Source: Methylocystaceae bacterium
GTDB taxonomy: Bacteria > Pseudomonadota > Alphaproteobacteria > Rhodospirillales > Terasakiellaceae
DNA length: 63,803 nucleotides
Reading direction: 5' to 3'
Assembly (NCBI GenBank): GCA_013373265.1
Contig: JABXIC010000077.1
Location: 1 to 63,803, forward strand
Of this stretch, positions 2,424 to 55,334 are shown piece after piece (the first letter of the stretch is position 1; every line of letters starts with the position of its first letter). The notes under the pieces are model-generated. The model was given only the letters and a program-made list of their open reading frames with translations. It was not told the DNA's origin and did no database searches. A program made the translations under genes and the position numbers.

Positions 2424-3569
2424 TTACACCAATGAACAATTTTTACAAGGCATCAACTGGTTACGATTCTTGTTAAGGTGTTGTTGTCGTAGGATGTTGT
2501 ATTGGTCAGAGTTCCATAATTCTGACAAGGACATGTCTTTCACATTTCCAACGGCGAGTGCGGATAAATAGTCTACATCACACGGATTTACACGGCCATC
2601 CCACCAAACAAAAAGACGTCGCCATAAATCAGAACAAGCTGTTTCAACGTTTGTTGGATCAGCATCATAAACACTTTCCCAAGGATTATAATCGACAAAA
2701 GCGACTTGATTGACATAGTCCTTCCAAAACCCTTCTATTTTATCAAAGTCCTGTTGTTCAGTGAATTTAACACCGGACACGCGTGTAATGGTTCTTGAAT
2801 TTGAATAATGCTTTGCTTTGATATCTGCAAATAATTGAACATTTTCAAGTACTTTATCGAGTCGCCCATTAACACGGAGTTTTGCATAAAGTTCGTCGTC
2901 TGCTGCATCTGCTGAAAAAACAATAGTATTCGGTTCCGCTGATAGCAAAGCATGTATTTTCTTCTCATCCAAATACCAAGCATTGGTATTAACCTTAAGT
3001 CCTAGAAACTTGCCGGCAACATATTCCAGCATATCTTCAATGCCTTTGCACAATAACGGTTCACCCCTAGAGGCCAATGTGACCGCTTCAACTTCACCTT
3101 CGATCTGATCAACAATTTGTTTGAAAAGGTTTACCTCCATGCGCCCTTTGTGCCCTCCTTTCCGGTCTGTCAGTTTGTGGTCTGTCTGGTAACAAAAGAC
3201 ACAACGGTAATTACAGACGGATGTTGGCTCGATCTGAACACAGGGTGGAAACGCATCTAGTTCTTTTTGCGCAGGATAGACATCATAGCGGAAACGGTAG
3301 AACAAATAGCGCGGTAATTCTTCATCACGAAGACGGTTAATCTCTTCAATAATATGCGGGCGCAACCAAAAACCATCTTTGCTTTTGTCTTTTTGCGTTA
3401 ACAAATTATCACAAGCCCGTTGCAAAATTAAACGACGTTCTTGAGAGAGATTCATCTCATCCAACTGAGTTGATAAATTATGGATACGCTTAATGATAAT
3501 CGATTGATCCGTATTGAGACCAGACAAACCAATAAAGCTATTGTCTTTGGTATAGGTTTTATTTTCCAT
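2424..3569 (-). CDS. Radical SAM protein with C-terminal SPASM/twitch domain
   Basis: CNYRCVFC motif, LASRGEPLL, and C-terminal CSDLW...DGRVNPC...CKNC. Start moved to ATG 3569 (MENKTY), which follows a GAGGA RBS overlapping the upstream stop. Confidence 0.88.
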   Translation of the reverse strand: MENKTYTKDNSFIGLSGLNTDQSIIIKRIHNLSTQLDEMNLSQERRLILQRACDNLLTQKDKSKDGFWLRPHIIEEINRLRDEELPRYLFYRFRYDVYPAQKELDAFPPCVQIEPTSVCNYRCVFCYQTDHKLTDRKGGHKGRMEVNLFKQIVDQIEGEVEAVTLASRGEPLLCKGIEDMLEYVAGKFLGLKVNTNAWYLDEKKIHALLSAEPNTIVFSADAADDELYAKLRVNGRLDKVLENVQLFADIKAKHYSNSRTITRVSGVKFTEQQDFDKIEGFWKDYVNQVAFVDYNPWESVYDADPTNVETACSDLWRRLFVWWDGRVNPCDVDYLSALAVGNVKDMSLSELWNSDQYNILRQQHLNKNRNQLMPCKNCSLV

Positions 3570-3576
3570 GTAATCC

Positions 3577-5154
3577 TCAGCTGCTCTGTTGTACGCCATA
3601 CTCAAGATCGGCAACTTGAGCGATCTCAGCATTTGGATTATCAGATGGAGCCTGGAAATAATTTTCCATATATTCTTGCTTCAATTCTTCAAAAATCCGA
3701 TTGCCTTCAGGCGTATCAGCTTCTGCGCGTTTAATGTCGTTCCAACGACTTTTTGGTAAATTAACATACAGAACAAAACATTTTCGCAAACCCATAATTT
3801 CATGGACTGGATATTGTGGCATTTCGAAAACAGGTTTATCGGTCAAACATTTTGTAATCGTTTCATGCTTAATTAAACCTAAATCTTCACACACTTTGCG
3901 AAGGGGTGTTCCGTGGAAAGGAACGAACGTATAGAGGTTAGCATTATCGGCTTTTATTTCTCGGTTAATTTCTATCGTATCCATAGCAATTTCACGCGTT
4001 TCTTTAGGAAAGCCAGTAATATTGTTAACCGAGAACTGAACGCCATATTGATGCGGAATTTTTAAAGCCTTAATAATATCGGCATTTTTCCATTGGCGAT
4101 CCAACATCTCTGATCGGAACTTCTCATTTCCATGCTCAAGACCAAATGAGATACGGTGTAAACCCACATCACTTAATTGTTTAATGTTCGCATGGGTAAT
4201 TGTTTCAGGGCGGGTCTGCATCCAAAATGGAAGTTTAATTTCCGAATACATTTCACAAAATTCATCCAGCTCACGCTGGTTCACTGCTAAGAATGTATCT
4301 GCCCAAAAATAGGCATACTCCAGATTTAATTCATCTTTAAAATAACGTAATTCTTTATAAACAAGGTCCATTTTCTTCTTACGTAAGAACTTGGAATCAG
4401 TTTCTTCTTTGTAAAAAGACATTTGCTGCGGTGAATTACAGAAACGACATTTATATGGACAGCCGCGAATGGTTTCAATCGGCAACATCCGATATATACG
4501 CCCTGACATGGGCCGATACAAGCGTGCATCTTCAAACAGTTCAACATCAATCATCGGCAGTTCATTGATATCAACCGGCTTGGTAACAGTATTTTTCTTC
4601 GTCAATCCACTTGGTTGTTTAATCCACAGGTTCGTTACATCATCATAATTCCCGCCAGCTTGAAGCTTTGCGCAAAGATCAATTAATGTATTTTCACCTT
4701 CACCGACACAGACCATATCAACTAAGGGCGCACTTAAACATATATCAGGAGCAAAAGTTGGGAAAACACCACCAGCAATAACTGGAACGGCATTTTTAAT
4801 CTTATATTCCTTGATCTCATCAAGGATATGCATGCCAAGTTCCCACATATCTTCTGTAGAGGAAATCGCAATAAGATCAGGCTGGAAACGATCAACTTGT
4901 TCGACTAAGTCAGTGCGCCAATTTGTTGTACGCAAATTGATGCCACGTCCATCCATATTATAAGGGACAACGTTTAGCATCTCCATCTTTGTGCCGTCAG
5001 AATCAATGCCATAATCAGTTTGATAATATGTTGCATCAAATACTTCGACGTTATGCCCCTGTTCTTTAAGCAGTGATGAAAACAAAGCAATGGCAGGAGG
5101 TAGCATATTCATCCCAAAAGTATTTGGATAAACAAATAATATATTGATTCCCAT
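3577..5154 (-). CDS. Cobalamin-dependent (B12-binding) radical SAM protein
   Basis: N-terminal B12-binding domain (ILFVYPN...PPAIALFSSLLKEQGH...IAGGVFPTF...VGEGE), RGCPYKCRFC, FWADTF, FGLEHG, TFVPFHGTPL; AAGGAG RBS. Confidence 0.9.
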   Translation of the reverse strand: MGINILFVYPNTFGMNMLPPAIALFSSLLKEQGHNVEVFDATYYQTDYGIDSDGTKMEMLNVVPYNMDGRGINLRTTNWRTDLVEQVDRFQPDLIAISSTEDMWELGMHILDEIKEYKIKNAVPVIAGGVFPTFAPDICLSAPLVDMVCVGEGENTLIDLCAKLQAGGNYDDVTNLWIKQPSGLTKKNTVTKPVDINELPMIDVELFEDARLYRPMSGRIYRMLPIETIRGCPYKCRFCNSPQQMSFYKEETDSKFLRKKKMDLVYKELRYFKDELNLEYAYFWADTFLAVNQRELDEFCEMYSEIKLPFWMQTRPETITHANIKQLSDVGLHRISFGLEHGNEKFRSEMLDRQWKNADIIKALKIPHQYGVQFSVNNITGFPKETREIAMDTIEINREIKADNANLYTFVPFHGTPLRKVCEDLGLIKHETITKCLTDKPVFEMPQYPVHEIMGLRKCFVLYVNLPKSRWNDIKRAEADTPEGNRIFEELKQEYMENYFQAPSDNPNAEIAQVADLEYGVQQSS

Positions 5155-5278: not shown

Positions 5279-5986
5279 TTATTCGCCACCTGCGACCGAG
5301 ATAACTTCATTTGAAATATAACTGTTATCTTCAGATGCGAACCAAATAATAGATTTAGCCATTTCTTGGACAGAAGCCGCTCGTCCTGCAGGGATTAATT
5401 CACAGCGTTGATTTAGCTTGTCATCAAGATGTATACGCGTATCAGTCACTCCAATTCGGACTATATTTGTAAATACATTATGCTTTGCCCAAGAGCGACA
5501 AATTGAGGGTATAAATTCAAGAGCGTGCTTGGATAAAGAATAAGTATAACTCTTTTCACCACCACCAAATTTTACACCAATACTAGACGCATGCACAATC
5601 CGACCATAGCCTCGTTCAACCATCTTTGGCCCGACTATTTGCATAATCATGATACCAGGTAATAAGTTTGATTGCAGCGCGTTTAATACATCATGTGCAG
5701 TCACATCATCGAATGAGACTGTTGGATAATTTGCCGCTAAATTAATAAAAACATCAGAAGATGCAATTTTATCACTGTAGATGTTTAAGCCTTTTTCTAG
5801 CGCCGAGATTGATGAGAAGTCTATTTGAATTGGGTATACAGCACTGTTTTTACATATTTTTTCAAATTCTGGACGCATCGTTCTATAATGGGCTAAAATG
5901 AAATAGTCCCTAGGATTATCTAGATATTGTTGGCATACAGCTAAACCAATATCTGAGCTGGCACCGCTAATAAGAACTGTTTTCAT
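5279..5986 (-). CDS. SDR family oxidoreductase
   Basis: Rossmann-like VLISGASSDIG, catalytic YSLSK (YxxxK), C-terminal ISNEVISVAGG. Confidence 0.85.
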   Translation of the reverse strand: MKTVLISGASSDIGLAVCQQYLDNPRDYFILAHYRTMRPEFEKICKNSAVYPIQIDFSSISALEKGLNIYSDKIASSDVFINLAANYPTVSFDDVTAHDVLNALQSNLLPGIMIMQIVGPKMVERGYGRIVHASSIGVKFGGGEKSYTYSLSKHALEFIPSICRSWAKHNVFTNIVRIGVTDTRIHLDDKLNQRCELIPAGRAASVQEMAKSIIWFASEDNSYISNEVISVAGGE

Positions 5987-6006
5987 TGAACAACTATACC
6001 ATTTTT

Positions 6007-6750
6007 TTATGCTGGTTTGATACCGTTCTTTTTAAGCCAAAATTCAGCTTGTGGTATTTGGTAGTCATAATCCACATCAAGACCGCCTTCATTGTGAATA
6101 GGCCAAATATTTTGACCCATCCATTTTTGCGGGAGTAACCCTTCTTCCATATTGTCAAGATTTTGTGGTCGAATAATTGAAACACCCATATCCGCAAACA
6201 ACACGTCGCCTTGACTATCGCGGTCGCAATTTAAAGTTTTAGGATCTCCAAAGGCTTCAAATGGGACAAAGGGCTGAAGGTGACCTGCGTCATCGACCTT
6301 ACGTGCACGTAAGGGGCTCCACATATTATAACAACTGACAGTTACGGTACTGTCTGTTTCGGGCTGTTCGCGTAATACCTTGATACCTTCTTCAAGCTGT
6401 GCCACGGAGATGGTTGGAGCGTTGGCCATTAAGAGAACAAGAAGTTCAAGTTCTTCACCATTGGCCTCGCATTCTTCTTTAATAATATTATAGGCATGAA
6501 CGTAAGCATCTTCACCTAAGGCCACTTTGTCTGCAAGGTAAGCAGGACGATCAATGATCACAGCATTAAATTCTTTAGCGATATCTTTGATACCCTGACT
6601 ATCGGTAGAAACATAAATTCGATCAATAGAAGGGGCAGCTTGGGCGGCTAATAAAGGATAAGCAACCAAAGGGCGACCTAGAACAGGATAGAGATTCTTA
6701 CCTGGGAAACCTGTTGAGCCTTCTCGGCCAATTAAAATTGCAACAATCAT
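6007..6750 (-). CDS. Acylneuraminate/CMP-ulosonate cytidylyltransferase family protein
   Basis: GREGSTGFPGKN, VSTDS, DRPAYLAD and DVDYDYQ motifs of the NeuA/KdsB (CTP_transf_3) family. Confidence 0.85.
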   Translation of the reverse strand: MIVAILIGREGSTGFPGKNLYPVLGRPLVAYPLLAAQAAPSIDRIYVSTDSQGIKDIAKEFNAVIIDRPAYLADKVALGEDAYVHAYNIIKEECEANGEELELLVLLMANAPTISVAQLEEGIKVLREQPETDSTVTVSCYNMWSPLRARKVDDAGHLQPFVPFEAFGDPKTLNCDRDSQGDVLFADMGVSIIRPQNLDNMEEGLLPQKWMGQNIWPIHNEGGLDVDYDYQIPQAEFWLKKNGIKPA

Positions 6751-6775
6751 TTTAAATGATACTCTTTCAAATCAA

Positions 6776-7378
6776 TTAAGCGATGGAATTATTTCTTTCT
6801 GAAATCGTTGTAATTACTCGAGCAGGAACACCTGTTGCGATTGAGCCTGAGGGAATATTTTTTGTGATGACTGAACCAGCTCCAATAACAACATTGTCAC
6901 CTATTATACATCCGGAAGTTATCACCACATTTGCCCCAATCCAAACGTCTTCTCCGATTATTATTGGAGTACCTATGTGGCCTTGTTTTCTAATTAAAAT
7001 CTCAGGGGATTTATCAAATCTATGATTAGATGCTCTGATAACTACATTTGGACCGATTAAACAATTATCACCGATTGAAATCTCACTCTGGTTTGCATCA
7101 AGAAATACACGATTGTTAATACTTACATTATCACCGATCTTCAAAGTGCCATGTAAAGATTCAATTTGACATCCTATCCCTAAATTTACTCGGTTACCTA
7201 TTGATATATTAGACCAACCGTTAACGTTAACAAACTGTTCAATGTTCATTCCTAAGCAGGGGCAACCTGAATATTTGCGAAACAAACGTAACCGAGCTTT
7301 ATAGCCTAATGCCCCAGGCATTATGGATGTAAAAAATATACCCCATTTTTCTGCTTCAATTTTTATTTGAGAAAACAT
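6776..7378 (-). CDS. Hexapeptide-repeat (left-handed beta-helix) acyltransferase
   Basis: Repeated [LIV]G-x-N hexapeptides, IGEDVWIGANVVI, GVPARVI. Confidence 0.88.
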   Translation of the reverse strand: MFSQIKIEAEKWGIFFTSIMPGALGYKARLRLFRKYSGCPCLGMNIEQFVNVNGWSNISIGNRVNLGIGCQIESLHGTLKIGDNVSINNRVFLDANQSEISIGDNCLIGPNVVIRASNHRFDKSPEILIRKQGHIGTPIIIGEDVWIGANVVITSGCIIGDNVVIGAGSVITKNIPSGSIATGVPARVITTISERNNSIA

Positions 7379-7393
7379 TGATGACTTCCTAAA

Positions 7394-8272
7394 TTAATGT
7401 CCTTCGCGGGTTTTGCTATCAATTGATTGCATGCAATCTAATAATCCCAAACCTAAATCGATATATGTATGTTGGACTAATTTTTTGCCTAATTTTGGCG
7501 TGTAACTATAGGGGGTTTGCATGTAATGGCCGATCCTAGATCCCTTACTCGTGTCGATTTCAATTCCGCCACCTAACATTTCAGAGATCATTTCCATCAT
7601 TTCACTTGTTTTGATTCGTTCACGACCCATTAAATGAATATGCTCATTTTTATATTCTGGTTGCAAAATTTCTACAGATGCTTCCGCAGCATCTGTAACA
7701 TGAATATATTCTCTGACTTCGTCTCCGGTGCCACTATACTCAATCTTTTTCTCTCTTAAGGCCTGTGCGATCATTCTAAAAATTGCGTTATGTTCATCAG
7801 CACGCGGGCCGTATAAGGAACCAAAACGCAATACCGTAAACGGCAAATTAAAACGTTGCAGATAATCATGTACTAGATGTTCGCCGGCTTGTTTTGAGGT
7901 GCGATAAAAAGACCCCTGAGTGCTATATACATAAATGGAACTGGCGAAAACGAAGCGTTTAATTTTGTTTTCTCGTGCTGCTTCTAAAGCATTCAATGTG
8001 CCAATAATGTTTACCTCTACCGTTGCACGGGGGCTGTTAATGGCATCATCAATGTCTGCGACGGCAGCAAGGTGGTATATGACATCACACCCTTTTACGG
8101 CAGCATTGACATGTTCAACATTTTTAATATCACCAATAACCATCGTTTGATCGTCACGCAGATATTTAGAAGGTATTAAGTCAAAAATACTTACTTCGTG
8201 ACCTGCATTGGATAGACTATCGGCAATATGACTTCCTAAAAAACCAGAACCACCAGTAACAAGAATTTTCAT
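7394..8272 (-). CDS. NAD-dependent epimerase/dehydratase (extended SDR)
   Basis: TGGSGFLG, YHLAA, YRTSK, LRFGSLYGP, REYIHVTD. Confidence 0.9.
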   Translation of the reverse strand: MKILVTGGSGFLGSHIADSLSNAGHEVSIFDLIPSKYLRDDQTMVIGDIKNVEHVNAAVKGCDVIYHLAAVADIDDAINSPRATVEVNIIGTLNALEAARENKIKRFVFASSIYVYSTQGSFYRTSKQAGEHLVHDYLQRFNLPFTVLRFGSLYGPRADEHNAIFRMIAQALREKKIEYSGTGDEVREYIHVTDAAEASVEILQPEYKNEHIHLMGRERIKTSEMMEMISEMLGGGIEIDTSKGSRIGHYMQTPYSYTPKLGKKLVQHTYIDLGLGLLDCMQSIDSKTREGH

Positions 8273-8303
8273 TATATTTTTCCCGACTTAAGCAAAGATG
8301 ATT

Positions 8304-9311
8304 TTACGTAAGTGCCATTTGTGCTGCTAATTCATATTCACTTTCAGGAACCGGATTCATAAAATCTTCCCCTTTCATAAAGCGAATTGCTTCTTCAGTA
8401 GCTTCAATTTCCATACGTGCTCGGCAATCTTTAGTCATTGATCCCATATGGCACGTTAAGATTATATTGTCTAATTCAAGAAGTTCACCGTTATACGGCT
8501 CTTCTTCAAACACATCAACCGCTGCCATTCTGATTTCATTATTTTTTAAAGCTTCAGCAAGGGCTTTTTCATTCACAATACTACCCCTTGCAGTATTAAC
8601 TAGAGCAGATGAAGGTTTCATCATATTTAATTCATCAGCACCTATTAAGTCTCGAGTGGTGGCTGTTAAGGGAATGTGTAATGAGATAACGTCTGACTCT
8701 TTATAAATTGTATCTTTACCAACCCATTCTATATTGTCATAAGTGAATTGATCCGACTTATCAATTATATCATTAGCAAGAATTTTAACATCGGGGAAAC
8801 CTCGACATAAATGATTAGTAAGTAACGCGCCAATCCTGCCCATCCCAATTATACCAATAGTAGATTTTGCAATTCGCGAGCCATGATAGCGGTGCCAAAT
8901 CCCATTACGCATTTTTTGATTTGCCGATGATATATTACGCAAGGCATCAAGTATTAAGCCAAGGCTCAGTTCAGCGACAGCAGTGGAAGGTCCATCAGGT
9001 GTATATGAGACGGTAATTCCACGCTTCTTAGCTTCGATTAAATCAACACTATCTAAACCAATTCCAACACGACAAATGGCTTTCAAATTAGGACAGGCAT
9101 CCATAACTTCAGCAGTTATCGGTTCAGTGCCAGCGATAACAATTGAATGATCTGAAATGATATCCGCGACCTCATTTGGCTTTAACTTTCTATTCAAAGG
9201 ATTGATTGAATATTTTATTGATTCTTGTTCCAATAATTGTGTAGGTGTTTTATCCGTATCAGAAAATGGAACAGTTGTTACAATAATTTTTTTGGGCTTT
9301 GTGTTTAGCAC
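8304..9311 (-). CDS. D-isomer-specific 2-hydroxyacid dehydrogenase (phosphoglycerate dehydrogenase-like, no ACT domain)
   Basis: RVGIGLDSVD, AVAE, GIIGMGRIG, LHIPLT, NTARG, DVFEEEP, TCHMGS. Confidence 0.88.
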   Translation of the reverse strand: MLNTKPKKIIVTTVPFSDTDKTPTQLLEQESIKYSINPLNRKLKPNEVADIISDHSIVIAGTEPITAEVMDACPNLKAICRVGIGLDSVDLIEAKKRGITVSYTPDGPSTAVAELSLGLILDALRNISSANQKMRNGIWHRYHGSRIAKSTIGIIGMGRIGALLTNHLCRGFPDVKILANDIIDKSDQFTYDNIEWVGKDTIYKESDVISLHIPLTATTRDLIGADELNMMKPSSALVNTARGSIVNEKALAEALKNNEIRMAAVDVFEEEPYNGELLELDNIILTCHMGSMTKDCRARMEIEATEEAIRFMKGEDFMNPVPESEYELAAQMALT

Positions 9312-14191: not shown

Positions 14192-15763
14192 TTAGATGAA
14201 AGATAGAGGGACTTTTTCTTTCATCTTTGCATCTGCTCGAGCAACTCCTTCCTGTGGGTCACCTTTTAATTTGACCCATTCTTTTTCAAAAGCGTCTAGT
14301 TTATCAAAATCCCCCCTGATCATAAGTTCTCGCAGACCATAAAGCTCAACAGCATTGAAATTTTCAGATATCGTAGCTGTAATGTCTGTCGCATCACCGA
14401 GAGCCTTCACATAGTTCTCTAGCTTACCATTGTATTGAGAAAGAATTTTGTCTTTATACATGCCGTACCATTCGCATCCTGGGTATGGTGTTACAAAAAA
14501 TGGCTTTGTAACAATACCAAGGCGATCCCAAGCCTTCATAGTATCACGAAGGCTTTCAAAATCTTCTGATGGAAATCCGATCATCTGATTGGGAATTGGG
14601 CGTATTCCAGCTTGCATAGTCCAATTATATGACTTGATGTTATTAGCTGGGGTAGCTCCTTTGCCGATACTTTTTAAGATACGTGGAGAGAATGATTCCC
14701 AACCATAATCAAGGTATGAACAACCCGCATTGCCCATCATTTGGAGGATGTCTTGAGTACATAAAGTGGCGTGACTTGTTCCACCCCAATGTACACCATG
14801 AGTGCAGTTTTCATCATGAAGAACACCTTCTTGACGGCACTTAGGTTGTAGGCCCTCTTTAATCCATAGATTACAAATCTCCTTCATCCATGTTCGTTTG
14901 GAATATTGGTCCATTGTCATCAAATTTTCGTCTAAGAAAGATACAAAATTAACTTGAAAACGTTCAACCATATATTTGACCATGTCAATAATATATCTTG
15001 GGCTATGATATCTGATATTACGGCTATGATTACCCGGCATGTCAAAGACTACATCTGCTTTTCCACCATCTCCTTCGACATAAGCCATGTCGCCAGATAA
15101 ACCCAGGTGGAAACAATAACGACAAATTAGTGAACATCCATAACTTGTATTAATGTCCAGTCGCCTTGTTGCTGTCATTGACTCTTCCGCTAGGGCTACA
15201 GACGAGTTTGGGAAATATACTTCTTCAAGGGGGAAAAGTTCCCATGCAGGATACGGTAAACTATCTAAATCAGCTAAAAGAGGACGAGACTTTGTAAAGT
15301 AGGTTTCATTATTTTTACGAAGACAGAGACCAGCTACATCATCGAGAGATGCTGCACTTTGACCGATAGCATCCAACAGTTCTGGAAACGTTACATATGC
15401 TTCACCAATAACTCCAATATCAATTTGTTTGATAAAAGACATAATGTCGTGAGGCATGCTTGTCAGCATACCACCGCCACAGATAGTTATTGATTTTTCA
15501 GAATAAGTTTTGGCACTTTCAAAAATTGTTTTAAGGGAAGAATATGCCGTCGTAATTCCTCCTGCAGCAATGACATCCCATTCATCCGCTTGCATAACGT
15601 CTTTAAGGACATCATCATTTAAGCGCCAAGCATTGTGATCGAATACCTGAACTTGATGCCCAGCTTTCATCGCAAGTGAGGCTAACATTGCTATACCGTA
15701 AGGAACATGTCGAGGTGCATCTTCTGCTCTTACGATCGGGTTTACAAAAAGAATTTTTACCAA
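14192..15763 (-). CDS. Cobalamin-dependent (B12-binding) radical SAM protein
   Basis: KILFVNP...PYGIAMLAS...IGEAY; YGCSLICRYC; FLDEN; YGWESFS; TPYPG. TTG start with AAGGA RBS. Confidence 0.9.
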   Translation of the reverse strand: MVKILFVNPIVRAEDAPRHVPYGIAMLASLAMKAGHQVQVFDHNAWRLNDDVLKDVMQADEWDVIAAGGITTAYSSLKTIFESAKTYSEKSITICGGGMLTSMPHDIMSFIKQIDIGVIGEAYVTFPELLDAIGQSAASLDDVAGLCLRKNNETYFTKSRPLLADLDSLPYPAWELFPLEEVYFPNSSVALAEESMTATRRLDINTSYGCSLICRYCFHLGLSGDMAYVEGDGGKADVVFDMPGNHSRNIRYHSPRYIIDMVKYMVERFQVNFVSFLDENLMTMDQYSKRTWMKEICNLWIKEGLQPKCRQEGVLHDENCTHGVHWGGTSHATLCTQDILQMMGNAGCSYLDYGWESFSPRILKSIGKGATPANNIKSYNWTMQAGIRPIPNQMIGFPSEDFESLRDTMKAWDRLGIVTKPFFVTPYPGCEWYGMYKDKILSQYNGKLENYVKALGDATDITATISENFNAVELYGLRELMIRGDFDKLDAFEKEWVKLKGDPQEGVARADAKMKEKVPLSFI

Positions 15764-15813: not shown

Positions 15814-16845
15814 TTATTGTTGAGGTTTAATAAATTCTTCGAAAGAGCATGTCTCAATACCCTCTCCAAACAAGATACCACCACCGGTACAGTTGTAGGT
15901 TTTTACACCATTACTTGAAGCCATCTCTGCCATCTCTAAAAATGCTGATCGATACCACAAATATGCTGGGTCGGTGAAAAATTCTGTATTTGTATGAGGA
16001 TTTTGAAAATGTACAAACCCCTTCGACAGATTGTCCTCACCTAGTAAATCTAATAACTCGGTGTAATATTGAGTTTCTTTATACGTAGTATCCCCATAAT
16101 AACTGAAGTCCATTCCAAGTAAGCCAACCCTAGACTTGCTTAATAAGGCATGAGCAATCACCCAACAAGCTGTACCAACATTGCCTCCAGCATTAATGCA
16201 TGGAAGGCCATTCATTCGATGGACTTCACGTGTTAAACTTTCCGGGGCATCGTAGTCATCAAAGAATGGGTTCCACCAATAGGTATCCATACCAGATTGT
16301 TGAGCTCTTTGTACGACAGCAGGAGAAGCAGAACTTGAAATGGCAATCCTCATTTCCTTGCCATGTTCATTAATAAGATTAATTAAGTCATTATTAAATG
16401 CAAGTTGATTATCTCTGAATGAAGGGTCCATATCTTGGCGTGAAAAATAATCGTCTTCATCAATAGCTTGTTGATTTAGCTTTGGATCACCAAACCAACG
16501 TACAATGCGTTCTGGATGTGGATCAACAGTCACAACAACATGTGGAATAATTTTATTCCTCAAGCACCAGGCCATAGATGACTCCGTAACAATAATGGTC
16601 CCATCAAAATTGCTTCCTTTTATCATCTTTGCCGTATCGTTACGGTGCAGGCTAGGTCCTGCAGCAATTACAAGGGCAGTATCATTATCTGGCAAACCAC
16701 TATCTTTTAGATACTGTATAGGGTTACTCTCCTCAATAGAGAGCTGGTTTTTGTGGGCATTTTTAATAGCTTGCTGTCCCACTCTTTCAAGAGTAAGGGA
16801 GTTCATTTGCTCAACTAAAGTTTCAGCGAAACTTGAAATGGCCAT
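15814..16845 (-). CDS. Maf/DUF115 (MAF_flag10, MptE-like) domain protein; candidate nonulosonate transferase
   Basis: ALVIAAGPSL, PHVVVTVD, GGNVGT, LLGMDFSY and YNCTGGG match the DUF115 motif order. Confidence 0.78.
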   Translation of the reverse strand: MAISSFAETLVEQMNSLTLERVGQQAIKNAHKNQLSIEESNPIQYLKDSGLPDNDTALVIAAGPSLHRNDTAKMIKGSNFDGTIIVTESSMAWCLRNKIIPHVVVTVDPHPERIVRWFGDPKLNQQAIDEDDYFSRQDMDPSFRDNQLAFNNDLINLINEHGKEMRIAISSSASPAVVQRAQQSGMDTYWWNPFFDDYDAPESLTREVHRMNGLPCINAGGNVGTACWVIAHALLSKSRVGLLGMDFSYYGDTTYKETQYYTELLDLLGEDNLSKGFVHFQNPHTNTEFFTDPAYLWYRSAFLEMAEMASSNGVKTYNCTGGGILFGEGIETCSFEEFIKPQQ

Positions 16846-16877: not shown

Positions 16878-17093
16878 TTAATCTTTGTCATATTGTGATG
16901 CGCGACCTGATTTTTTCATTTCTTTCTCATCTCCATCTTCGATCCAGACGAAGTTTTTACGAGAAACAAACCCAATACTTCCACCAAGTGTCGCTAGCGC
17001 AGCTTTCTCGAACCTTGACTCTATATCGTCTTTTTCTTTATTTTTTACAACCTGTGAAGCTGGTTCGAAGTTACCTTTTAGTAAGTTGTTCAT
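16878..17093 (-). CDS. Small hypothetical protein (71 aa)
   Basis: Fills the gap between flanking co-oriented genes; GGAGA RBS 7 nt before the ATG; no family recognised. Confidence 0.65.
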   Translation of the reverse strand: MNNLLKGNFEPASQVVKNKEKDDIESRFEKAALATLGGSIGFVSRKNFVWIEDGDEKEMKKSGRASQYDKD

Positions 17094-17117: not shown

Positions 17118-17795
17118 CTAAAAAATTGCTTTTAATATCATAAAGGCTTCTGCGTTTTTAACGCTAATGTCCGCACCTCTATATTCCGAAATAGCACGAA
17201 CTTTTTTAAATGATCGTGGGTGCGGGTCATCCATTATTTCGCTTTTATAAAGCGAAAGAATTTCAATCTTTTTATCAATGAGGTCAGTGATATCACAATA
17301 CGAATTAGGAATAAAACAATTTGTTAACAGAGGCGGTGAAACATTTGTTGAGGATAGTGTTTCAAAGCAAAGTATTTGTTTCACGCATGGTAGTCTAAAT
17401 GATTTAGTACATGCCCAGACTGCATCAAAAGTTATTTTATGATCGGAATGTACATCTCCAGGATATACAACGTAGATAATTTCGGGCTGAATTTCATTAA
17501 GTATCTTACTAATCTTCCCAATAAGATCAGGAAGGCAGCTCTCATGAAGGGATGCAGGTTGATTGCCCAATTCGTAAGTAGCGTTCATACCATATGATTT
17601 AGCAACAGCTTTTATAGTGTCCTTCCTTTCACGTACAGAAGAATCAGTATATTTGGGAGTTTGTGGGGAAGTGGCTATTAGCCAGTTAATTACATCTCCA
17701 TTCGCAGAATGTTTAAGTATTGTTCCACCACATCCAAGGGTTTCATCATCTGCGTGAGCTGAAATCACAGCAATAGATTTTTTTCGAGCAATCAT
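17118..17795 (-). CDS. PIG-L/LmbE family deacetylase
   Basis: SAHADDETLGCGG and DVHSDH metal-binding motifs; C-terminal AEAF. Confidence 0.9.
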   Translation of the reverse strand: MIARKKSIAVISAHADDETLGCGGTILKHSANGDVINWLIATSPQTPKYTDSSVRERKDTIKAVAKSYGMNATYELGNQPASLHESCLPDLIGKISKILNEIQPEIIYVVYPGDVHSDHKITFDAVWACTKSFRLPCVKQILCFETLSSTNVSPPLLTNCFIPNSYCDITDLIDKKIEILSLYKSEIMDDPHPRSFKKVRAISEYRGADISVKNAEAFMILKAIF

Positions 17796-18679
17796 AATAA
17801 GGTATCATGTTTTTTTGGTAATTTTTTTAAGTTGTGCTTTGTAACAGTCACTGATCCATCGCCTGTTTTAACTTTAAATTGGTTTTTGTCAACAAAAAGG
17901 ACATGTCCTGGCTCTATATCTGGTGATGAGTCTTTATTGATTTCAAGGTCCCAAATTTTAAAACATCCAGTTGGACCATCTGAATCGGCACCAGGGTAAG
18001 GATGGCTTAATGCACGTACTAAATTGCGAATACTTGTTGAATGCATTCGCCAATCTATTTTGCCATCGCTTGCCTTTCTTTTGCGCCAATATGTTGCTTG
18101 ACTATGATCCTGAGGCTGCGCTGATATGGTATTGGTATTGAATTGCTCTATTAGTTCTCGTATTTGCCGTGCGGCAGTTTGCGTGATTTCAAAGTATAGG
18201 CTTTGTGCGTTCATATCTTCACTTATTAGTATGCGTTCTTGTGAGAGAATTGGACCTGAGTCCGCACCTTCATCCATTAAGAAAAATGTAGAACCCGTTT
18301 TTTTCAAACCCAAGGCAAGAGCCCAAATGATTGGATGGCGCCCTCTATTCCTTGGTAATAAAGTGGGATGATATCCAATGACTCCTTGAGGAGGAATTGC
18401 AAGAATATTACTATCTAATATCTCGGACCATCCAATACAAAAAATGATGTCAGGCTTTTTTGCTTTGATCCACTCAATTGCTGATGCGTCACGTAAGGTC
18501 ATGACTTGAAGGTATGGTATGTTAGCATTTCGCGCAAGATCACCCAGAGGTGCGAAATCAGTGTTAAAGTTTGACTTTGGCTTACAAATAACGCCGCATA
18601 GATCTACATCTGTTTTTATAAGTGTACTTAATAAATGTCGGCTAAAAGCAACACTTCCAATAACTAGTGCTCTTATCAT
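17792..18679 (-). CDS. Formyltransferase (N10-formyl-THF-dependent, Fmt-like sugar N-formyltransferase)
   Basis: HPTLLPRNRGRHP, DEGADSG and IDW...RAL..PYPGA; C-terminal Fmt domain. Confidence 0.88.
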   Translation of the reverse strand: MIRALVIGSVAFSRHLLSTLIKTDVDLCGVICKPKSNFNTDFAPLGDLARNANIPYLQVMTLRDASAIEWIKAKKPDIIFCIGWSEILDSNILAIPPQGVIGYHPTLLPRNRGRHPIIWALALGLKKTGSTFFLMDEGADSGPILSQERILISEDMNAQSLYFEITQTAARQIRELIEQFNTNTISAQPQDHSQATYWRKRKASDGKIDWRMHSTSIRNLVRALSHPYPGADSDGPTGCFKIWDLEINKDSSPDIEPGHVLFVDKNQFKVKTGDGSVTVTKHNLKKLPKKHDTLL

Positions 18680-19845
18680 GAGCGTTTAACTTCATAAAAA
18701 GGTTTTCTCAGTAAATTACCAGATCGTAATTTTGACTTAATAATTTTGACGGTTTGAACTGCAGAGGTACCATCACCATAGGGGTTATCCATGTCGATTA
18801 GTGTATTTAAGAAAGCTGGACTAAGACCTGTTTTGATAGATGATAGGAGTTCTTCATATTTTCCTTGGCAGTGAATGACTGACTTGGGAGCCAAACGCCC
18901 TTTTTGCCTATCACCGATATTTATTGTTGGGGTTTTAAAGTGTGGAGCTTCAAGCAATCCGCTTGATGAATTCCCAATAACAAGGTCAGCATGTTTCAAT
19001 AAGCTCAAATAACGTAGTTGGCCTAACGAACTTTTTAGTTGGCACCGTTCTTTATTTTTACTGATGTACTCAATAATTAGCTTTTCAATTTCTCTGCCTT
19101 CCATATCTGCATTTGGTTGTGAGAAAAGTATTGTTGCAGTTGGATAAACATCTAACACTTTCAGAACTTCAGAAAATTCCAATGCGGATTTTCCCTTTTC
19201 TAAAGTAATAGGATGGTACGTTACTGAGAAAATTAAATCACTATTTTTTAAGTTCAAGCTGTTAATTAACTCCTTTTTGCTAAGGAGTTTTATAGAATCC
19301 AATGTATCTAAAACGGGTGCCCCAACATTAAAAACTCTATTGGGCTGCTCCCCCATTTGTATTATTCGATTTTTATATAAATCAGTAACCGGGAAATGAA
19401 GGGAAGACATCTTAGTGACTGCATGACGAATAGCATCATCAATCAATCCTTCTGTTGCTTCTCCCCCATGAATATGCGCAATTGGGATTCTCGACATCAC
19501 GGCTGCACTAACGATACTTAATAATTCAAAACGATCGCCAAGGACAATTATTAAATCTGGTTTAAGGCGCTTAAAAGCATAACCAAATTTTGAAAGGCCT
19601 TGCCCCATAGAGGAGATAATCTCATGAGGAGAGTCTTGATTAATTGCCATATCAATTAGATTTGTAATTTCAAGCCCATCATTTTCTATTTCCTTAAAAG
19701 TAGAACCGAATTTCTCAGAAAGGTGCATTCCTGTAACAATAAGCATGGTTTCAAAATCAGCATCTTGTTTTAAGGTCTGAATTAATGGTTTCAACAAACC
19801 ATAATCAGCTCGGCTCCCGGTAACGACTGCAACTTTGAATTTCAT
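18676..19845 (-). CDS. neuC: NDP-N,N'-diacetylbacillosamine/UDP-GlcNAc 2-epimerase, hydrolysing (NeuC/LegG)
   Basis: VTGSRADYGLL, TGMHL, LGDRFE, HIHGGE, DDAIRHAVTK, GNSSSG, GDRQKGR, NPYGDG. Start moved to ATG 19845 (ATGA overlap with the legC stop). Confidence 0.93.
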   Translation of the reverse strand: MKFKVAVVTGSRADYGLLKPLIQTLKQDADFETMLIVTGMHLSEKFGSTFKEIENDGLEITNLIDMAINQDSPHEIISSMGQGLSKFGYAFKRLKPDLIIVLGDRFELLSIVSAAVMSRIPIAHIHGGEATEGLIDDAIRHAVTKMSSLHFPVTDLYKNRIIQMGEQPNRVFNVGAPVLDTLDSIKLLSKKELINSLNLKNSDLIFSVTYHPITLEKGKSALEFSEVLKVLDVYPTATILFSQPNADMEGREIEKLIIEYISKNKERCQLKSSLGQLRYLSLLKHADLVIGNSSSGLLEAPHFKTPTINIGDRQKGRLAPKSVIHCQGKYEELLSSIKTGLSPAFLNTLIDMDNPYGDGTSAVQTVKIIKSKLRSGNLLRKPFYEVKRS

Positions 19846-20981: not shown

Positions 20982-20982
20982 T

Positions 20983-44652: not shown

Positions 44653-44808
44653 ACTTAAACCAAGTTATTAGGTAGCAAGGTTTTAATTTTTTAAGTGAGT
44701 CGGTTTCATGATCCTTTTCAACCTAACTAAATTGGGGCTCTCATTGGTAGTTCTTAAAAATGTTGTGTTTTGTGATGACCTGCTGATTATCAGAAATGAG
44801 ATTGTATA

Positions 44809-48904: not shown

Positions 48905-50961
<2,057 letters not shown>

Positions 50962-50964
50962 GCG

Positions 50965-51546
50965 ATGGCAAACGCACCGATCTTTAATGGCGTTACCATT
51001 CATGAAAGCGCCTATGTGGATGAACCTTGCGAAATTGGTGCGGGCACCAAAATCTGGCATTTCTCTCATGTGTTAAGCCAGACCAAAATTGGTCAAAATT
51101 GCGTTTTGGGGCAAAATGTGGTGGCGGGGCCCCATGTGACAATCGGCAATAATTGTAAAATTCAAAATAACGTCAGTGTCTATAAAGGTGTGGTCTTAGA
51201 AGATGGCGTCTTCTGTGGCCCTTCTTGTGTGTTTACAAACGTCAACAATCCGCGTGCGGAAATTGAACGTAAAGAAGAATTTCGTCAAACTTTGGTGAAG
51301 CGCGGTGCCACCATCGGGGCAAATGCGACGATTGTTTGCGGGGTAACCCTGGGGCAATATAGCTTTATCGCCGCTGGTGCTGTTGTGGCCGGTGACGTAC
51401 CTGCTTACGCCTTGATGGCAGGTGTACCTGCAAAACGCATCGGCTGGATGAGCAAGGCAGGCGGCAAGCTGGGCTCTGATTTAATTTGCCCGATTGACGG
51501 TACTCCGTATCGTGAAACCGATGCTGGCTTGTTGGAAGAGGCTTAA
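50965..51546 (+). CDS. wbpD: UDP-GlcNAc3NA N-acetyltransferase WbpD/WlbB
   Basis: [44 protein letters not shown]. Confidence 0.9.
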
Positions 51547-51549
51547 GCG

Positions 51550-52683
51550 ATGAATAATATTGCTTTTATTGACCTGCAAGCTCAACGCAAACGTCTTGGT
51601 GATAAAATTGATCAGGCGATCCAAGGGGTGTTGGAACGCGGTGATTTTATTCAAGGCCAAGCAGTGAGGGCCTTTGAAAAAGATCTGGCTGATTTTTGTG
51701 GTGCTGCTCATGTGGTCAGTTGTGCCAATGGTACGGATGCTTTGACCCTTGTGGGGATGGCAGAAAGTTTGGGGCCAAAGGATGTGGTTTTTGTCCCGGC
51801 CTTTACCTTTGTTGCCACAGCAGAAGCATTTTCATTACTCGGCGTGACGTCATTTTTTGTGGATGTGTTGCCCGATACCTTCAATATGGACCCGGCAAGT
51901 TTGAAGCAAGCTATTGTTGAAGCTCAAGGCCAAGGACTGACGCCACGTATGATTGTCGCGGTTGATTTATTTGGACAACCAGCTGATTACCCTGCTCTTT
52001 CACAAATTGCACAAGAAAACGATCTTGTTTTGGTTGCTGATGCGGCCCAATCTATGGGCGGGGCGATTGAGGGGCAGAAAGTGGGCACGCTTGCTGATTA
52101 TACCACGACCAGCTTTTTTCCGGCCAAACCGTTGGGTTGTTATGGGGATGGTGGCGCTGTTCTGACGGATAATGAAGAAAAAGCAGTTTTGCTGCGTTCT
52201 TTATCCCAACATGGCAAGGGCAGCGAGAAATATGACAATGTCCGCATTGGTTTAAACAGTCGCCTTGATAGCATTCAGGCGGCAATACTTAGGGAAAAAT
52301 TGTCTATTTTTGCCGATGAATTGGAAAAACGCCAAGATGTGGCGGCACGTTATTCAACAGCTTTAGGCAATCGGGTGGGGATACCCTTTATCAAAGATGG
52401 CTATTATAGTGCCTGGGCACAATACACCTTGACCTGTGAAGACCGCGATGGTTTGCAACGTTATTTAAAGGAAAAAGGTATACCGACAGCTGTTTATTAC
52501 CCGATGGCACTGAATATTCAAGGGGGATATAAGCAGTATCCGGTGGTGTCCAGCGGAGTGGCGGTGTCACAAAATGCATCCGCTTCTGTCTTAAGTTTGC
52601 CCATGCATCCTTATTTGGAAAAGGATGTGCAAGACTTTATCATTTCGGCAATTTCTGATTTCTATGGTAATAGGTCTACATGA
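51550..52683 (+). CDS. wbpE: UDP-3-oxo-GlcNAcA aminotransferase WbpE/WlbC
   Basis: FIDLQAQ, ANGTDAL, DAAQS, SFFPAKPLGCYGDGG, NSRLDSIQAA, AWAQYT, SLPMHPYL. Confidence 0.88.
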   Translation: MNNIAFIDLQAQRKRLGDKIDQAIQGVLERGDFIQGQAVRAFEKDLADFCGAAHVVSCANGTDALTLVGMAESLGPKDVVFVPAFTFVATAEAFSLLGVTSFFVDVLPDTFNMDPASLKQAIVEAQGQGLTPRMIVAVDLFGQPADYPALSQIAQENDLVLVADAAQSMGGAIEGQKVGTLADYTTTSFFPAKPLGCYGDGGAVLTDNEEKAVLLRSLSQHGKGSEKYDNVRIGLNSRLDSIQAAILREKLSIFADELEKRQDVAARYSTALGNRVGIPFIKDGYYSAWAQYTLTCEDRDGLQRYLKEKGIPTAVYYPMALNIQGGYKQYPVVSSGVAVSQNASASVLSLPMHPYLEKDVQDFIISAISDFYGNRST

Positions 52684-53702
52684 CAAGATCACGACAGATA
52701 GATATTAAAGTGCCATTAATAGCGGTTGTTATCCCGTGTTATAAGGTGACCAAACATATTGCGGGCGTTATCGATGCGATTGGGCCGGAAGTATCGCGCG
52801 TCTATGTGGTTGATGATAAATGCCCGGATGAGAGCGGTGCATTTGTTGAAGCCAATATAAAAGATAAGCGCGTCCATGTGTTGTATCATGATGTCAATAA
52901 AGGCGTGGGCGGTGCGACCTTGACCGGCATGCAGCAAGCTGTTGCAGACGGATGTGATATTTTGGTGAAAATCGATGGTGACGGACAGATGGATCCTGCG
53001 TTGATCCCGTCTTTTGTTGGGCCGATTATTGAAGGGCAAGCCGATTGTACTAAGGGCAATCGCTTTTTTGAGATTGATGGTGTTAAAGCTATGCCGACTG
53101 TGCGTTTGATCGGTAATGCAGGCTTGTCATTTATGGCAAAGCTTTCAACTGGTTATTGGCATATTTTTGATCCAAATAACGGTTTTTTGGCAGTGCATGC
53201 CAAAGTGCTAGAGATGTTGCCTTGTGACAAGATTGCACAACGTTATTTTTTTGAAACGGATTTTCTATTTCGGTTAAATACTGTTCAGGCGGTTGTGGTC
53301 GAAGTTCCCATGCAGGCGGTTTATGGGGATGAAGAGAGTAATTTACATGCGGGACGTGAAATTACCAAATTTGCTTACGGCCATTTGCGCAATTTTTTAA
53401 AGCGGATTTTTTATAGTTATTATCTACGCAATTTTTCTGTGGCTTCCATTGAGATCATCATTGCCTTAGTTGGGCTTTTTTTTGGTGTCACATACGGTGT
53501 AATGGCTTGGTGTAAGTCTGCTGAGACAGGCATTCCTGCCACAGCAGGGACGATTATGTTGGCGGCGTTACCCGTGATTATCGGCATGCAGTCACTGTTT
53601 GCATTTTTTAATCATGATTTAAACAATGTACCGAAAGAACCGTTACATAAACGTATGCGTGATTGGGCCAGTTATATTTCTGGAATAAGTAATCGAGAAT
53701 AA
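52680..53702 (+). CDS. GT2 polyprenyl-phosphate glycosyltransferase (DPM/ArnC-like, two C-terminal TMs)
   Basis: VVIPCY, VVDDKCPD, NKGVGGA, KIDGDGQMDP, KGNRF, DPNNGF, YFFETD, YGDEESNL. Confidence 0.88.
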   Translation: MTRSRQIDIKVPLIAVVIPCYKVTKHIAGVIDAIGPEVSRVYVVDDKCPDESGAFVEANIKDKRVHVLYHDVNKGVGGATLTGMQQAVADGCDILVKIDGDGQMDPALIPSFVGPIIEGQADCTKGNRFFEIDGVKAMPTVRLIGNAGLSFMAKLSTGYWHIFDPNNGFLAVHAKVLEMLPCDKIAQRYFFETDFLFRLNTVQAVVVEVPMQAVYGDEESNLHAGREITKFAYGHLRNFLKRIFYSYYLRNFSVASIEIIIALVGLFFGVTYGVMAWCKSAETGIPATAGTIMLAALPVIIGMQSLFAFFNHDLNNVPKEPLHKRMRDWASYISGISNRE

Positions 53703-53730
53703 CCCTCAGAAAACCAAGGTTTCTTTATGC

Positions 53731-53765
53731 TTGAGGCCGACAGTGAATCTTTGATATAACTGTCG
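53731..53765 (+). promoter_or_regulatory. Putative sigma70 promoter with overlapping inverted repeat
   Basis: TTGAGG (53731-53736), 18-nt spacer, extended -10 TGaTATAAC (53752-53760); inverted repeat CGACAGT-N14-ACTGTCG (53738-53765). Confidence 0.45.
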
Positions 53766-53810
53766 TATATAAGTTAAACCCTGCGCGAAATTGCATTAGG
53801 CACCCTATTT

Positions 53811-55334
53811 ATGAAAATATGTCTCATCCGTCCACCGATCCTATGTCCTAAGAGTCATCCGATCGTACAAATGACCCCTCCTATTGGCTTGGCTTATGTG
53901 GCGGGATCATTGCGTGATGCTGGTTATGAGGTAACAGTCATTGATGGGTTGGCAGAAAGTTTCGATACGCGTCATAACTGGGGGGAAGACTGCTATTTGT
54001 ACGGTCTGTCCATTGAACAGATTTTAGACGGCATTGATGAAACGACAGATGTTATTGGTGTATCTGCGGCCTTTACTTTTGAATGGCCGGTTTGTCGTGA
54101 ATTGATCAAGCAATTGCGCGAACGCTTTCCTAATGTACGCCTCATTGGTGGTGGGGAACATATTACTGCTTTGCCAGAACTTTCTATGGAAGAAACACCT
54201 TTGGAAGTTGGTGTGTTGGGTGAAGGCGAAGAGATTGTTATCAACCTTGTAAAAGCATTTGAAGCTAATGAGACGGATTTAAGCAAAATTGGTGGGATTG
54301 TATATCGTAATGAACAGGGCGATATTGTACGTAATGAGCGTCACAATCGGATCCGCGAGCTGGATGATATTCCGCGTCCGGCGTGGGAGTATTTGCCGAT
54401 TGAGCAATATCTTGACCGTGGATTTGGTTTTGGGGTGACACGAGGGCGTTCGATGCCAGTGATTGCTTCACGTGGCTGTCCATACCAATGTACCTTCTGT
54501 TCTAACCCAAAAATGTGGACAACACGGTGGGTGGTGCGTTCTGTCGATAATATGCTGGATGAACTAGAATATTATCAAAAGACATATGGGGCGCAAAACT
54601 TTGATTTTTATGATCTGACTGCAATTGTTAAAAAGACTTGGATTGTTGAGTTTTGTGAAAAGATTGAACAACGTCGCATGAAGTTTACATGGCAGTTGCC
54701 CAGCGGTACGCGTTCTGAAGCAATTGATGATGAAGTGTCACAACTGCTGTATAAGTCGGGGTGTCGCAACTTGTCTTATTCGCCGGAAAGTGGATCACCG
54801 ACTGTTTTAGCGCGCATTAAGAAAAAAATTAAAACCGAAGCCATGCTGACGTCTTTGCGTTCTACCGTAAATGCCGGCATGAATATTAAGCTTAATATTA
54901 TGTTTGGTTTCCCCGGGGAGACATACAAAGAAATTCGTGAGTCCTTTAAATTCATTTGTCAAATGGCTTGGGCTGGCGGTCATGATTTAAGTATTTGGGC
55001 ATTTTCGCCTTATCCAGGGTCTGAACTGTTTGATCAACTTTATAAAGAAGGCAAAATCAAAATGGATGATGCCTATTATGATGATCTGCGTTCGTACTCT
55101 GATATGTCGCGTTGTAAGTCATTCAGTGAACATATTGATAACAAGACATTGATGCGTCTTCGCTGGTTGGGAACTGTGCTGTTTTATGGTGTCGGCTGGT
55201 TGCGTCGTCCATGGCGTCCGTTCCGTATGGTGTGGAACGGTTTTACCGGGCGTCATGAAAGTCGTTCCGATCTTGTCATTACATCCTTGTTGCGACGCAT
55301 GAAACTTGTTAAGAAGTCAAAAGAAGCTGGGTAG
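53811..55334 (+). CDS. Cobalamin-dependent (B12-binding) radical SAM protein
   Basis: KICLIRPP...PPIGLAYVAG...GGEHITA...GEGE; SRGCPYQCTFC; FYDLT; PESGS; SPYPGS. Confidence 0.92.
   Translation: MKICLIRPPILCPKSHPIVQMTPPIGLAYVAGSLRDAGYEVTVIDGLAESFDTRHNWGEDCYLYGLSIEQILDGIDETTDVIGVSAAFTFEWPVCRELIKQLRERFPNVRLIGGGEHITALPELSMEETPLEVGVLGEGEEIVINLVKAFEANETDLSKIGGIVYRNEQGDIVRNERHNRIRELDDIPRPAWEYLPIEQYLDRGFGFGVTRGRSMPVIASRGCPYQCTFCSNPKMWTTRWVVRSVDNMLDELEYYQKTYGAQNFDFYDLTAIVKKTWIVEFCEKIEQRRMKFTWQLPSGTRSEAIDDEVSQLLYKSGCRNLSYSPESGSPTVLARIKKKIKTEAMLTSLRSTVNAGMNIKLNIMFGFPGETYKEIRESFKFICQMAWAGGHDLSIWAFSPYPGSELFDQLYKEGKIKMDDAYYDDLRSYSDMSRCKSFSEHIDNKTLMRLRWLGTVLFYGVGWLRRPWRPFRMVWNGFTGRHESRSDLVITSLLRRMKLVKKSKEAG

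Follow-up and report, generated by a model that had tools for sequence, protein, structure and literature searches.

The 63,803-nt window analysed here (contig JABXIC010000077.1 of assembly GCA_013373265.1, from a Methylocystaceae bacterium placed in the Terasakiellaceae by GTDB) carries five genes for radical S-adenosylmethionine (SAM) enzymes, R1 to R5 (Table 1). They fall into four separable and independently mobile modules, and one pathway shared by all of them is unsupported. We judge it somewhat more probable than a coin toss that the four modules tailor surface sugars and that in one of them the R3 trio, which consists of the B12-binding enzyme R3, a short Maf-fold protein and a 71-aa protein, uses methylcobalamin to C-methylate a sugar of the legionaminic acid (Leg) type, giving a ten-carbon (C10) ulosonic acid. 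The observed part of this proposal is the gene content, the linkage of the trio to Leg-type genes, and the adjacent orthologues in named records of Magnetospirillum gryphiswaldense.

Five radical SAM enzymes in four modules

The initial annotation had counted three radical SAM enzymes with a B12-binding domain and two with four auxiliary cysteines, and the Pfam matches, the motif and the cysteine spacing bear this out. All five open reading frames (ORFs) are present, each with a single CxxxCxxC motif and a match to the Pfam family Radical_SAM. R2, R3 and R5 have a B12-binding domain (PF02310) N-terminal to the radical SAM domain, both above the Pfam cut-offs, and the DxHxxG (His-on) motif sought in these three proteins is absent from all of them. 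This motif is likewise not known from the class B cobalamin-dependent radical SAM methylases, to which GenK, Fom3 and MoeK5 belong; GenK lengthens the chain of its sugar substrate by a carbon, and Fom3 methylates a substrate linked to cytidine monophosphate (CMP). R1 and R4 consist of a radical SAM domain and a single four-cysteine twitch domain, match SPASM (PF13186) and have four C-terminal cysteines with the spacing C-X17-C-X44/45-C-X2-C, the last three of which in R1 align with cysteines of BtrN. With its start at 3569, R1 has the same length as its orthologue in genome G006. None of the five reaches the cut-off of a named family in NCBIfam, and the identity among them within each type is only 21–27%. 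The genome has 24 matches to PF04055, and the window, which makes up 1.6% of it, holds five where 0.39 would be expected (binomial p 3.5e-5). The genome has four B12-radical-SAM genes, every one of them in a glycan locus (three in the window, one on contig C65), and it also encodes cobN and cobS.

These genes had been regarded as one locus running one radical pathway, a view that the data do not support. Instead, the window comprises two divergent operons. The minus-strand operon (480–43488, GC about 33–43%) contains both neuB genes, four CMP-transferase genes and four of the five enzymes, while the plus-strand operon (43615–60009, GC 42–49%) contains R5 and has neither neuB nor a CMP-transferase. 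The four modules are separate because the conserved neighbours and the distribution differ for each enzyme. Moreover, among ten genomes of the same genus an R2 orthologue occurs in one, an R5 orthologue in another and an R3 orthologue in none, which indicates that the enzymes move separately. For the same reasons it is highly improbable that all five act in one pathway on one ulosonic acid, even though all lie inside 53 kb and four are on one strand with operon-like spacing. The expected co-occurrence with neuAB-type genes was found for R3 (13 of 18 genomes carry neuB no more than about 20 kb away) and, on few cases, for R4 (neuB in 3 of 3 fetched genome loci, a small sample); it held by half for R1/R2, near which a CMP-transferase is common and neuB is not, and failed for R5 (neuB within 20 kb in 2 of 32 genomes). 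The direction of the initial annotation is thus partly supported: it is right in the case of R3 and wrong in that of R5, while for R4 it is plausible and for R1/R2 it has shifted.

The R3 trio and its proposed link to a ten-carbon ulosonic acid

R3 orthologues at 53–63% identity were found in 18 of 250 genomes of the order, and in all 17 loci fetched (regions were fetched for 17 of the 18 genomes) R3 is adjoined by a DUF115 partner of 341–492 aa. In the reverse test, which started from the partner in metagenomes (best 80 of at least 426 loci, 13 of which had less than 400 nt downstream and were dropped), R3 lies within 400 nt downstream in 64 of the 67 informative loci; when the distance is widened to 2 kb, the number rises to 66. 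A small gene of the 71-aa type is present in 18 of 18 genome R3 loci and in 70 of 73 informative metagenome loci. Both families are large, with at least 1397 clusters for R3 and at least 1696 for the partner. In locus L188 a nucleotidyltransferase gene splits the trio, and there R3 is preceded by an intact small gene and the Maf-fold gene by a degenerate copy of it. As for neuB, one further genome has it 208 kb from R3, and four of the 18 are unresolved at contig ends or without an assembled neuB. The neighbours in 33 loci include NeuC (18), PtmE (15), WbuX/HisFH (11) and a formyltransferase (8); NeuC and PtmE point to Leg. In the window itself, NeuB, NeuC and NeuD are above the NCBIfam cut-offs, and since LegB (466.7 against 475) and LegC (371 against 420) score slightly under theirs, we can only infer the Leg-type stereochemistry.

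The model of the Maf-fold partner (pLDDT 91) matches Maf 5mu5 with a Z-score of 22.1 (root-mean-square deviation 3.3, 252 aligned; Foldseek E 2.4e-7), followed by MptE at 14.8 and by sialyltransferases at 7–8, the last within the range of common arrangements. The best sequence match of the partner profile is an archaeal HPPK/MptE (E 3e-10). Together with the position of R5 orthologues mostly among housekeeping genes, this would favour the idea that a mobile glycan island carries the enzymes as passengers without shared sugar chemistry and that the Maf-fold protein is an MptE-type kinase. We give very little credence to it, because the fold is closer to Maf than to MptE, the neighbours are sugar genes, the linkage of the trio is strict across many loci, and B12 import in SAR11 tracks these enzymes, as described below. 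The Maf N-terminal domain is absent from the partner, in which PF01973 is the only family found, while the full-length Maf on contig C65 has 668 aa and includes PF20157; no flagellin family was matched by any of the 59 window ORFs scanned with Pfam. By its predicted structure, the partner has the fold of a CMP-ulosonate-binding enzyme and, because it lacks the N-terminal domain, stands outside the flagellin Maf family.

The alignment of the 71-aa protein shows invariant G7, N8, F28, E29, G37, G38 and S39, including a GGS motif. Predicted alone, it gives a low-confidence fold (pTM 0.22); it matches no Pfam family, and an atlas search returned unnamed clusters only. When the three proteins of the trio were modelled as a complex, the prediction scored 0.76 against 0.65 for a control in which R3 was replaced; this was taken as no answer and used neither way. 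The trio might resemble a system for ribosomally synthesized and post-translationally modified peptides (RiPPs), in which the 71-aa protein is the target of both enzymes, being methylated by R3 and receiving a nonulosonic acid on its invariant serine from the Maf-fold enzyme. A short conserved protein upstream of a radical SAM gene, with such a low pTM and a GG-S motif, would suit this, and Maf enzymes glycosylate serine according to the part of the report cited here (10.1101/2023.12.03.569772). It seems to us quite unlikely, since the ATP-binding cassette (ABC) transporter of the window has no peptidase domain, no PqqD/RRE match was obtained in the window (Pfam, E 1e-5; divergent forms are possible), the residues past the GG are conserved and not variable, and the cited sections of the SugarBase preprint place the C10 sugar already on CMP (10.64898/2026.04.20.719630).

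The C10 sugar would connect the proposed C-methylation by R3 to published chemistry. Kleikamp et al., in the portion of their report used here, describe a possible C10 ulosonic acid of the composition C16H26N2O9 in M. gryphiswaldense and, at a lower level, in a methanogen sample (PMC8157484). In the corresponding sections of the SugarBase preprint, the CMP-activated C10 sugar gives a marker of 311.10 against 297.09 for Leg and pseudaminic acid (Pse) and loses four carbons on cleavage against three for Leg, and the authors argue against O-methylation; section 12 of the preprint assigns no gene to it (the supplement lying outside this check), and the words radical and cobalamin are absent from the main text (10.64898/2026.04.20.719630). 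The composition C16H26N2O9 equals LegAc2 plus acetyl plus CH2 (390.1638), and the CMP masses of the C10 work fit LegAcAm plus acetyl plus zero, one or two CH2. An extra CHOH would yield a marker of 309.09, unlike the observed 311.10. Once all its acyl groups are lost, the C10 sugar differs from Leg/Pse by exactly CH2 at an equal oxidation state, a better fit to C-methylation than to an extra CHOH. The +14 Da C-methyl series that the initial annotation expected has a reported counterpart in M. gryphiswaldense, whose named records encode the partner (AVM75583.1) and R3 (AVM75584.1) consecutively, at 53% and 54% identity in profile searches; R3 of the window is 54% identical to the named M. gryphiswaldense protein P0225. 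R3 is the leading candidate C-methylase for the C10 ulosonic acid. In the text examined, this acid was reported in 2020 and 2026 without an assigned gene, and the trio offers a three-gene candidate, by which a published orphan sugar becomes testable in M. gryphiswaldense, a harmless species in culture.

We assume the following course of the reaction. The 5'-deoxyadenosyl radical of R3 would abstract a hydrogen from an unactivated carbon of the Leg-type sugar, and the substrate radical would accept a methyl group from methylcobalamin; if the target is C9 of Leg, or C6 of the bacillosamine precursor, a linear C10 chain would result. Binding or transfer of the CMP-sugar would fall to the short Maf-fold protein, and the 71-aa protein would serve either as a subunit of it or as a carrier linked through serine.

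The other modules and the possible use of cobalamin

R2 represents a family of at least 2200 clusters (E ≤ 1e-60), its nearest named relative being in Terasakiella sp. A23 (86%), which makes it probable that the host is a marine alphaproteobacterium related to that strain. Its neighbourhoods were compared in the best 80 of 208 loci, many of which are short and from which opposite-strand shadow ORFs were dropped; these 80 span SAR11, Nitrospina, Rhodospirillales, Omnitrophota, Nitrospirota, Planctomycetota and others. The neighbours, given for the 80 loci and then for the 41 of at least 17 kb, are a CMP-transferase (52; 35), an epimerase (37; 25), a twitch enzyme (33; 24), an aminotransferase (25; 19), a short-chain dehydrogenase/reductase (SDR; 23; 15), a 2-hydroxyacid dehydrogenase (23; 14), an HpcH-/HMGL-type aldolase (16; 10) and neuB (12; 9), with SDR and aminotransferase together in one of the 80. 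Where the twitch enzyme is present (33 loci), a CMP-transferase occurs in 31, an SDR only in 16, an aminotransferase only in 15 and both in one. The SDR group is heterogeneous (24–46% identity to the SDR of the window), and the SDR/aminotransferase label changes 7–8 times on the R1 tree without clustering. Because the two pair exclusively and alternate on this tree, the data fit a ketone product of R1 that is resolved by either of them, as with BtrN, the best solved relative of R1 (E 1e-11). The substrate is likely a CMP-activated keto acid that does not come from neuB and differs from that of the trio. On it R1 would turn a hydroxyl into a ketone, the SDR (in the window) or an aminotransferase (elsewhere) would complete the epimerisation or amination, and R2 would methylate. 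The fold of the R2 model matches OxsB, TsrM, MgmA, AprD4, CysS and TokK at 13–18% identity, with E values of 1e-14 to 1e-20 for OxsB, TsrM, MgmA, CysS and TokK.

R4 has orthologues at 54–59% identity in only 2 of the 250 genomes, and a DegT aminotransferase gene follows in both as well as in metagenome locus L228. R4 is a rarer BtrN-like enzyme, which would perform a similar oxidation near the second neuB. R5 orthologues (at least 57% identity) occur in 32 of the 250 genomes, and in the regions fetched for 20 of these there is no CMP-transferase; the usual neighbour is an unannotated protein with 9–12 predicted membrane segments (14 of 20), and WbuX and Wzx are found in 4 of 20. R5 is not nonulosonate-linked, and it likely modifies a lipid-carried sugar, which would be an amino-uronate and not an ulosonic acid; we take it to resemble MoeK5 of moenomycin. 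The neighbour is a multi-pass membrane protein of 610–650 aa without a Pfam match at E 0.01 (L136, 10660–12516, and 13 other loci), and these loci are often near genes for DinG helicase, GroEL or methionine synthase. The 469-aa protein of the window was rejected as a member of this family, whose profile matched no protein of the window or genome; it is an analogue by membrane topology only.

Use of B12 by R2-type enzymes is suggested, indirectly, by the SAR11 orthologues. A TonB-dependent receptor gene lies within 10 kb of R2 in 17 of 25 SAR11 loci (one of which was assigned to SAR11 from recall of its name) and in none of the 55 other loci. The best family of this receptor is the B12 receptor BtuB, with scores below the TIGR01779 cut-off, and an AdoCbl-II riboswitch is present in 9 of the 10 SAR11 R2 loci scanned. 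The riboswitch, the BtuB-like receptor and DUF6580 stand beside glycan B12-radical-SAM genes in L051 (riboswitch at 11657–11738) and 16 other SAR11 loci, and in L051 and L053 this region adjoins tRNA and 5S rRNA genes. A B12-binding domain was found in 30 of 150 Pelagibacteraceae genomes, and no methionine-synthase-sized ORF carries one of these domains (B12-dependent ribonucleotide reductase was outside the search). The BtuB-like receptor occurs in 17 of these 30 genomes against 2 of the 120 without the domain, and the riboswitch in 14 of 30 against 2 of 120; in both receptor exceptions the gene next to the receptor encodes a radical SAM protein that matches the B12-binding domain weakly. In this table the seed genome G031 and G078, G149, G173 and G178 (a weak 360-aa PF02310 match only) were counted as negative or excluded. 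To our knowledge, cultured SAR11 needs no B12. SAR11 has been called B12-auxotrophic, with the regulation of its btuB unknown, in the part of a study cited here (PMC9296465), and the main text of a paper on the SAR11 O-chain cluster (PMC11898729) does not mention radical, cobalamin, B12, TonB or riboswitch. Other B12-radical-SAM families of SAR11 (L115, L119–L121, L123, L125) have GHMP kinase, SIS isomerase and transketolase-like pairs as neighbours, which suggests heptose or branched-sugar modules.

Taken further, the trio would be the missing pathway of C10 ulosonate, with a B12 radical methylase that lengthens or branches Leg, perhaps while the sugar is attached through serine to a small carrier; sialic-like sugars with C-methyl groups would then form a common class so far overlooked, and some SAR11 lineages would import B12 only for surface decoration. 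We see this as standing at even chances. If it is true, radical B12 chemistry enters cell-surface glycan synthesis through families of more than 1000 sequence clusters each, and it may be the reason why 19 of 150 SAR11 genomes hold a B12 receptor, a scarce ocean vitamin being tied to surface variation.

Several points weigh against C-methylation by R3 and its extension to SAR11. The top fold match of R2, OxsB, is a non-methylating enzyme. As neuB has a baseline of 191 in the 250 genomes, only the distance between R3 and neuB discriminates (genome-level co-occurrence, 17 of the 18 R3 genomes, was dropped as uninformative), and the genomes are kin, so that the counts overstate independence. The link between R3 and the C10 sugar comes from one species. 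In the parts of their texts cited here, Kleikamp et al. propose a promiscuous aldol-type condensation as the origin of the sugar (PMC8157484) and the SugarBase authors see an elongated backbone (10.64898/2026.04.20.719630). In SAR11, 13 of the 30 genomes that have a B12-binding domain lack a BtuB-like match, in G156 about 470 kb separate the receptor from the enzymes, and kinship inflates the statistics. Furthermore, 5 of 17 R3 loci have a second B12-radical-SAM-like gene within about 10 kb, and the responsible enzyme could therefore be a different one. We hold it possible, though rather unlikely, that the trio tailors Leg-type sugars by other radical chemistry (N-acyl methylation, oxidation or rearrangement) and that a different enzyme or a seven-carbon precursor gives rise to the C10 sugar. 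These additional genes, the frequent WbuX/HisFH and formyltransferase neighbours and a domain architecture equal to that of the non-methylating OxsB and BchE would agree with it, while the CH2 increment at an unchanged oxidation state and the R3 pair in the C10 producer M. gryphiswaldense speak for methylation of the backbone by R3.

Surroundings of the modules and comparison with known systems

Table 1. Features of the 63,803-nt window
Feature	Coordinates	Strand	Description
R1	2424..3569	-	BtrN-like twitch radical SAM enzyme, 381 aa; putative dehydrogenase acting on a sugar; best solved relative BtrN
R2	3577..5154	-	B12-binding radical SAM enzyme, 525 aa; large conserved family
Rest of R1/R2 cassette	5279..9311	-	SDR reductase, CMP-transferase, acetyltransferase, NAD epimerase/dehydratase, 2-hydroxyacid dehydrogenase; recurrence in 80 loci
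R3	14192..15763	-	B12-binding radical SAM enzyme, 523 aa; candidate for C-methylation of a Leg-type sugar
Short Maf-fold (DUF115/MptE-like) protein	15814..16845	-	343 aa, PF01973; constant R3 partner
71-aa protein	16878..17093	-	ORF, third member of the R3 unit; no Pfam family
Leg-type pathway and N-formyl tailoring	17118..25481	-	PIG-L deacetylase, formyltransferase, NeuC, LegC-like, LegB-like, PtmE-like, NeuD, NeuB, NeuA
R4	35278..36351	-	The other twitch radical SAM enzyme, 357 aa; follows the second neuB and a DUF4910 gene
R5	53811..55334	+	B12-binding radical SAM enzyme, 507 aa; WlbABC/GT2/WbuX/Wzx operon
R5 context	50020..60009	+	WlbA/B/C-type 2,3-diamino-uronate genes, GT2, WbuX-like amidotransferase, Wzx flippase, 469-aa membrane protein

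Besides the Leg-type pathway and the deacetylase-formyltransferase pair, the minus-strand operon contains several orphan proteins and an ABC flippase. Four of the orphans are large (480–2387, 11125–13290, 29326–30432 and 31837–33504, minus strand), one of them being of the LIC12162 family, and they are possible transferases for four CMP-activated sugars. Upstream of R4, the stretch 36373–43488 (minus strand) encodes a KdsB-like transferase, a Gfo oxidoreductase, an iron alcohol dehydrogenase, a GT2, a DegT aminotransferase, the second NeuB and DUF4910; these genes presumably resemble KdnAB (8-amino-Kdo) and Cj1295, and locus L168 carries counterparts of DegT, neuB and DUF4910 at 59–74%. A nucleotidyltransferase-like gene (1–463, minus strand) runs past the left contig end, so the minus-strand operon extends beyond the window; by eye, the gene order is as in G006. 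The plus-strand operon also includes GalE and amidotransferases, and at its start has truncated asparagine-synthase-like (44809–45549) and epimerase-like (46668–46970) ORFs on the plus strand, which are probably gene remnants. On contig C65, a flagellin glycosylation locus (7382–37839, L011–L013) carries the full-length Maf, neuB, the fourth B12 radical SAM gene and two more radical SAM genes, as well as genes for a thiamine pyrophosphate enzyme, a C-methyltransferase and CDP-dideoxysugars.

The enzyme classes themselves are known, and no published description of their acting on surface ulosonic acids was found. We know of no characterised Leg pathway with a radical SAM step; the literature searched, which covered few subscription journals, gave no link between radical SAM enzymes and nonulosonic acids and no description of radical B12 chemistry in cell-surface glycan synthesis, and PMC4758666 does not mention radical SAM or SPASM. 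Every step type of the Leg pathway (LegB, LegC, LegH/NeuD, PtmE, LegG/NeuC, LegI/NeuB and LegF/NeuA) is found at 18676–25481, to which the window adds radical SAM enzymes, absent from the described versions as far as we know. The deacetylase-formyltransferase pair resembles the one described for Ca. Kuenenia in the cited sections of the SugarBase preprint (10.64898/2026.04.20.719630).

With the Maf flagellin nonulosonate transferases (PDB 5MU5) the R3 partner shares the central-domain fold, but it has half the length, no N-terminal domain and no flagellin nearby, flagellin and the full-length Maf being on contig C65. GlfM is a small cis-encoded accessory factor of Maf-2, just as the R3 unit has a small protein; compared by description, GlfM has 89 residues and is a predicted four-helix bundle encoded downstream of maf, whereas the trio protein is encoded upstream and has 55–70 aa. 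The class B methylases TsrM, TokK, CysS and MgmA have in common with R2 the B12-binding and CxxxCxxC architecture and the fold of its model, but the structural identity is 13–18% and the context here is surface glycans instead of antibiotics or peptides; R3 differs from them also by its two dedicated partners. BtrN (PDB 4M7T), the best solved relative of both R1 and R4, shares with them the four-cysteine twitch and the pairing with an aminotransferase or reductase, while R1 and R4 exceed it in length by about 100 residues and stand alongside CMP-transferases or neuB. Finally, the ElaABC cassette of Acinetobacter baumannii KL49 combines CMP-Leg synthesis with C8-epimerisation, and the R1 cassette likewise joins a CMP-transferase to an apparent oxidise-then-reduce pair; the abstract of that work names no radical enzyme (PMC13656337), whereas in the R1 cassettes an aminotransferase can take the place of the reductase, a B12 enzyme is added and neuB is mostly missing.

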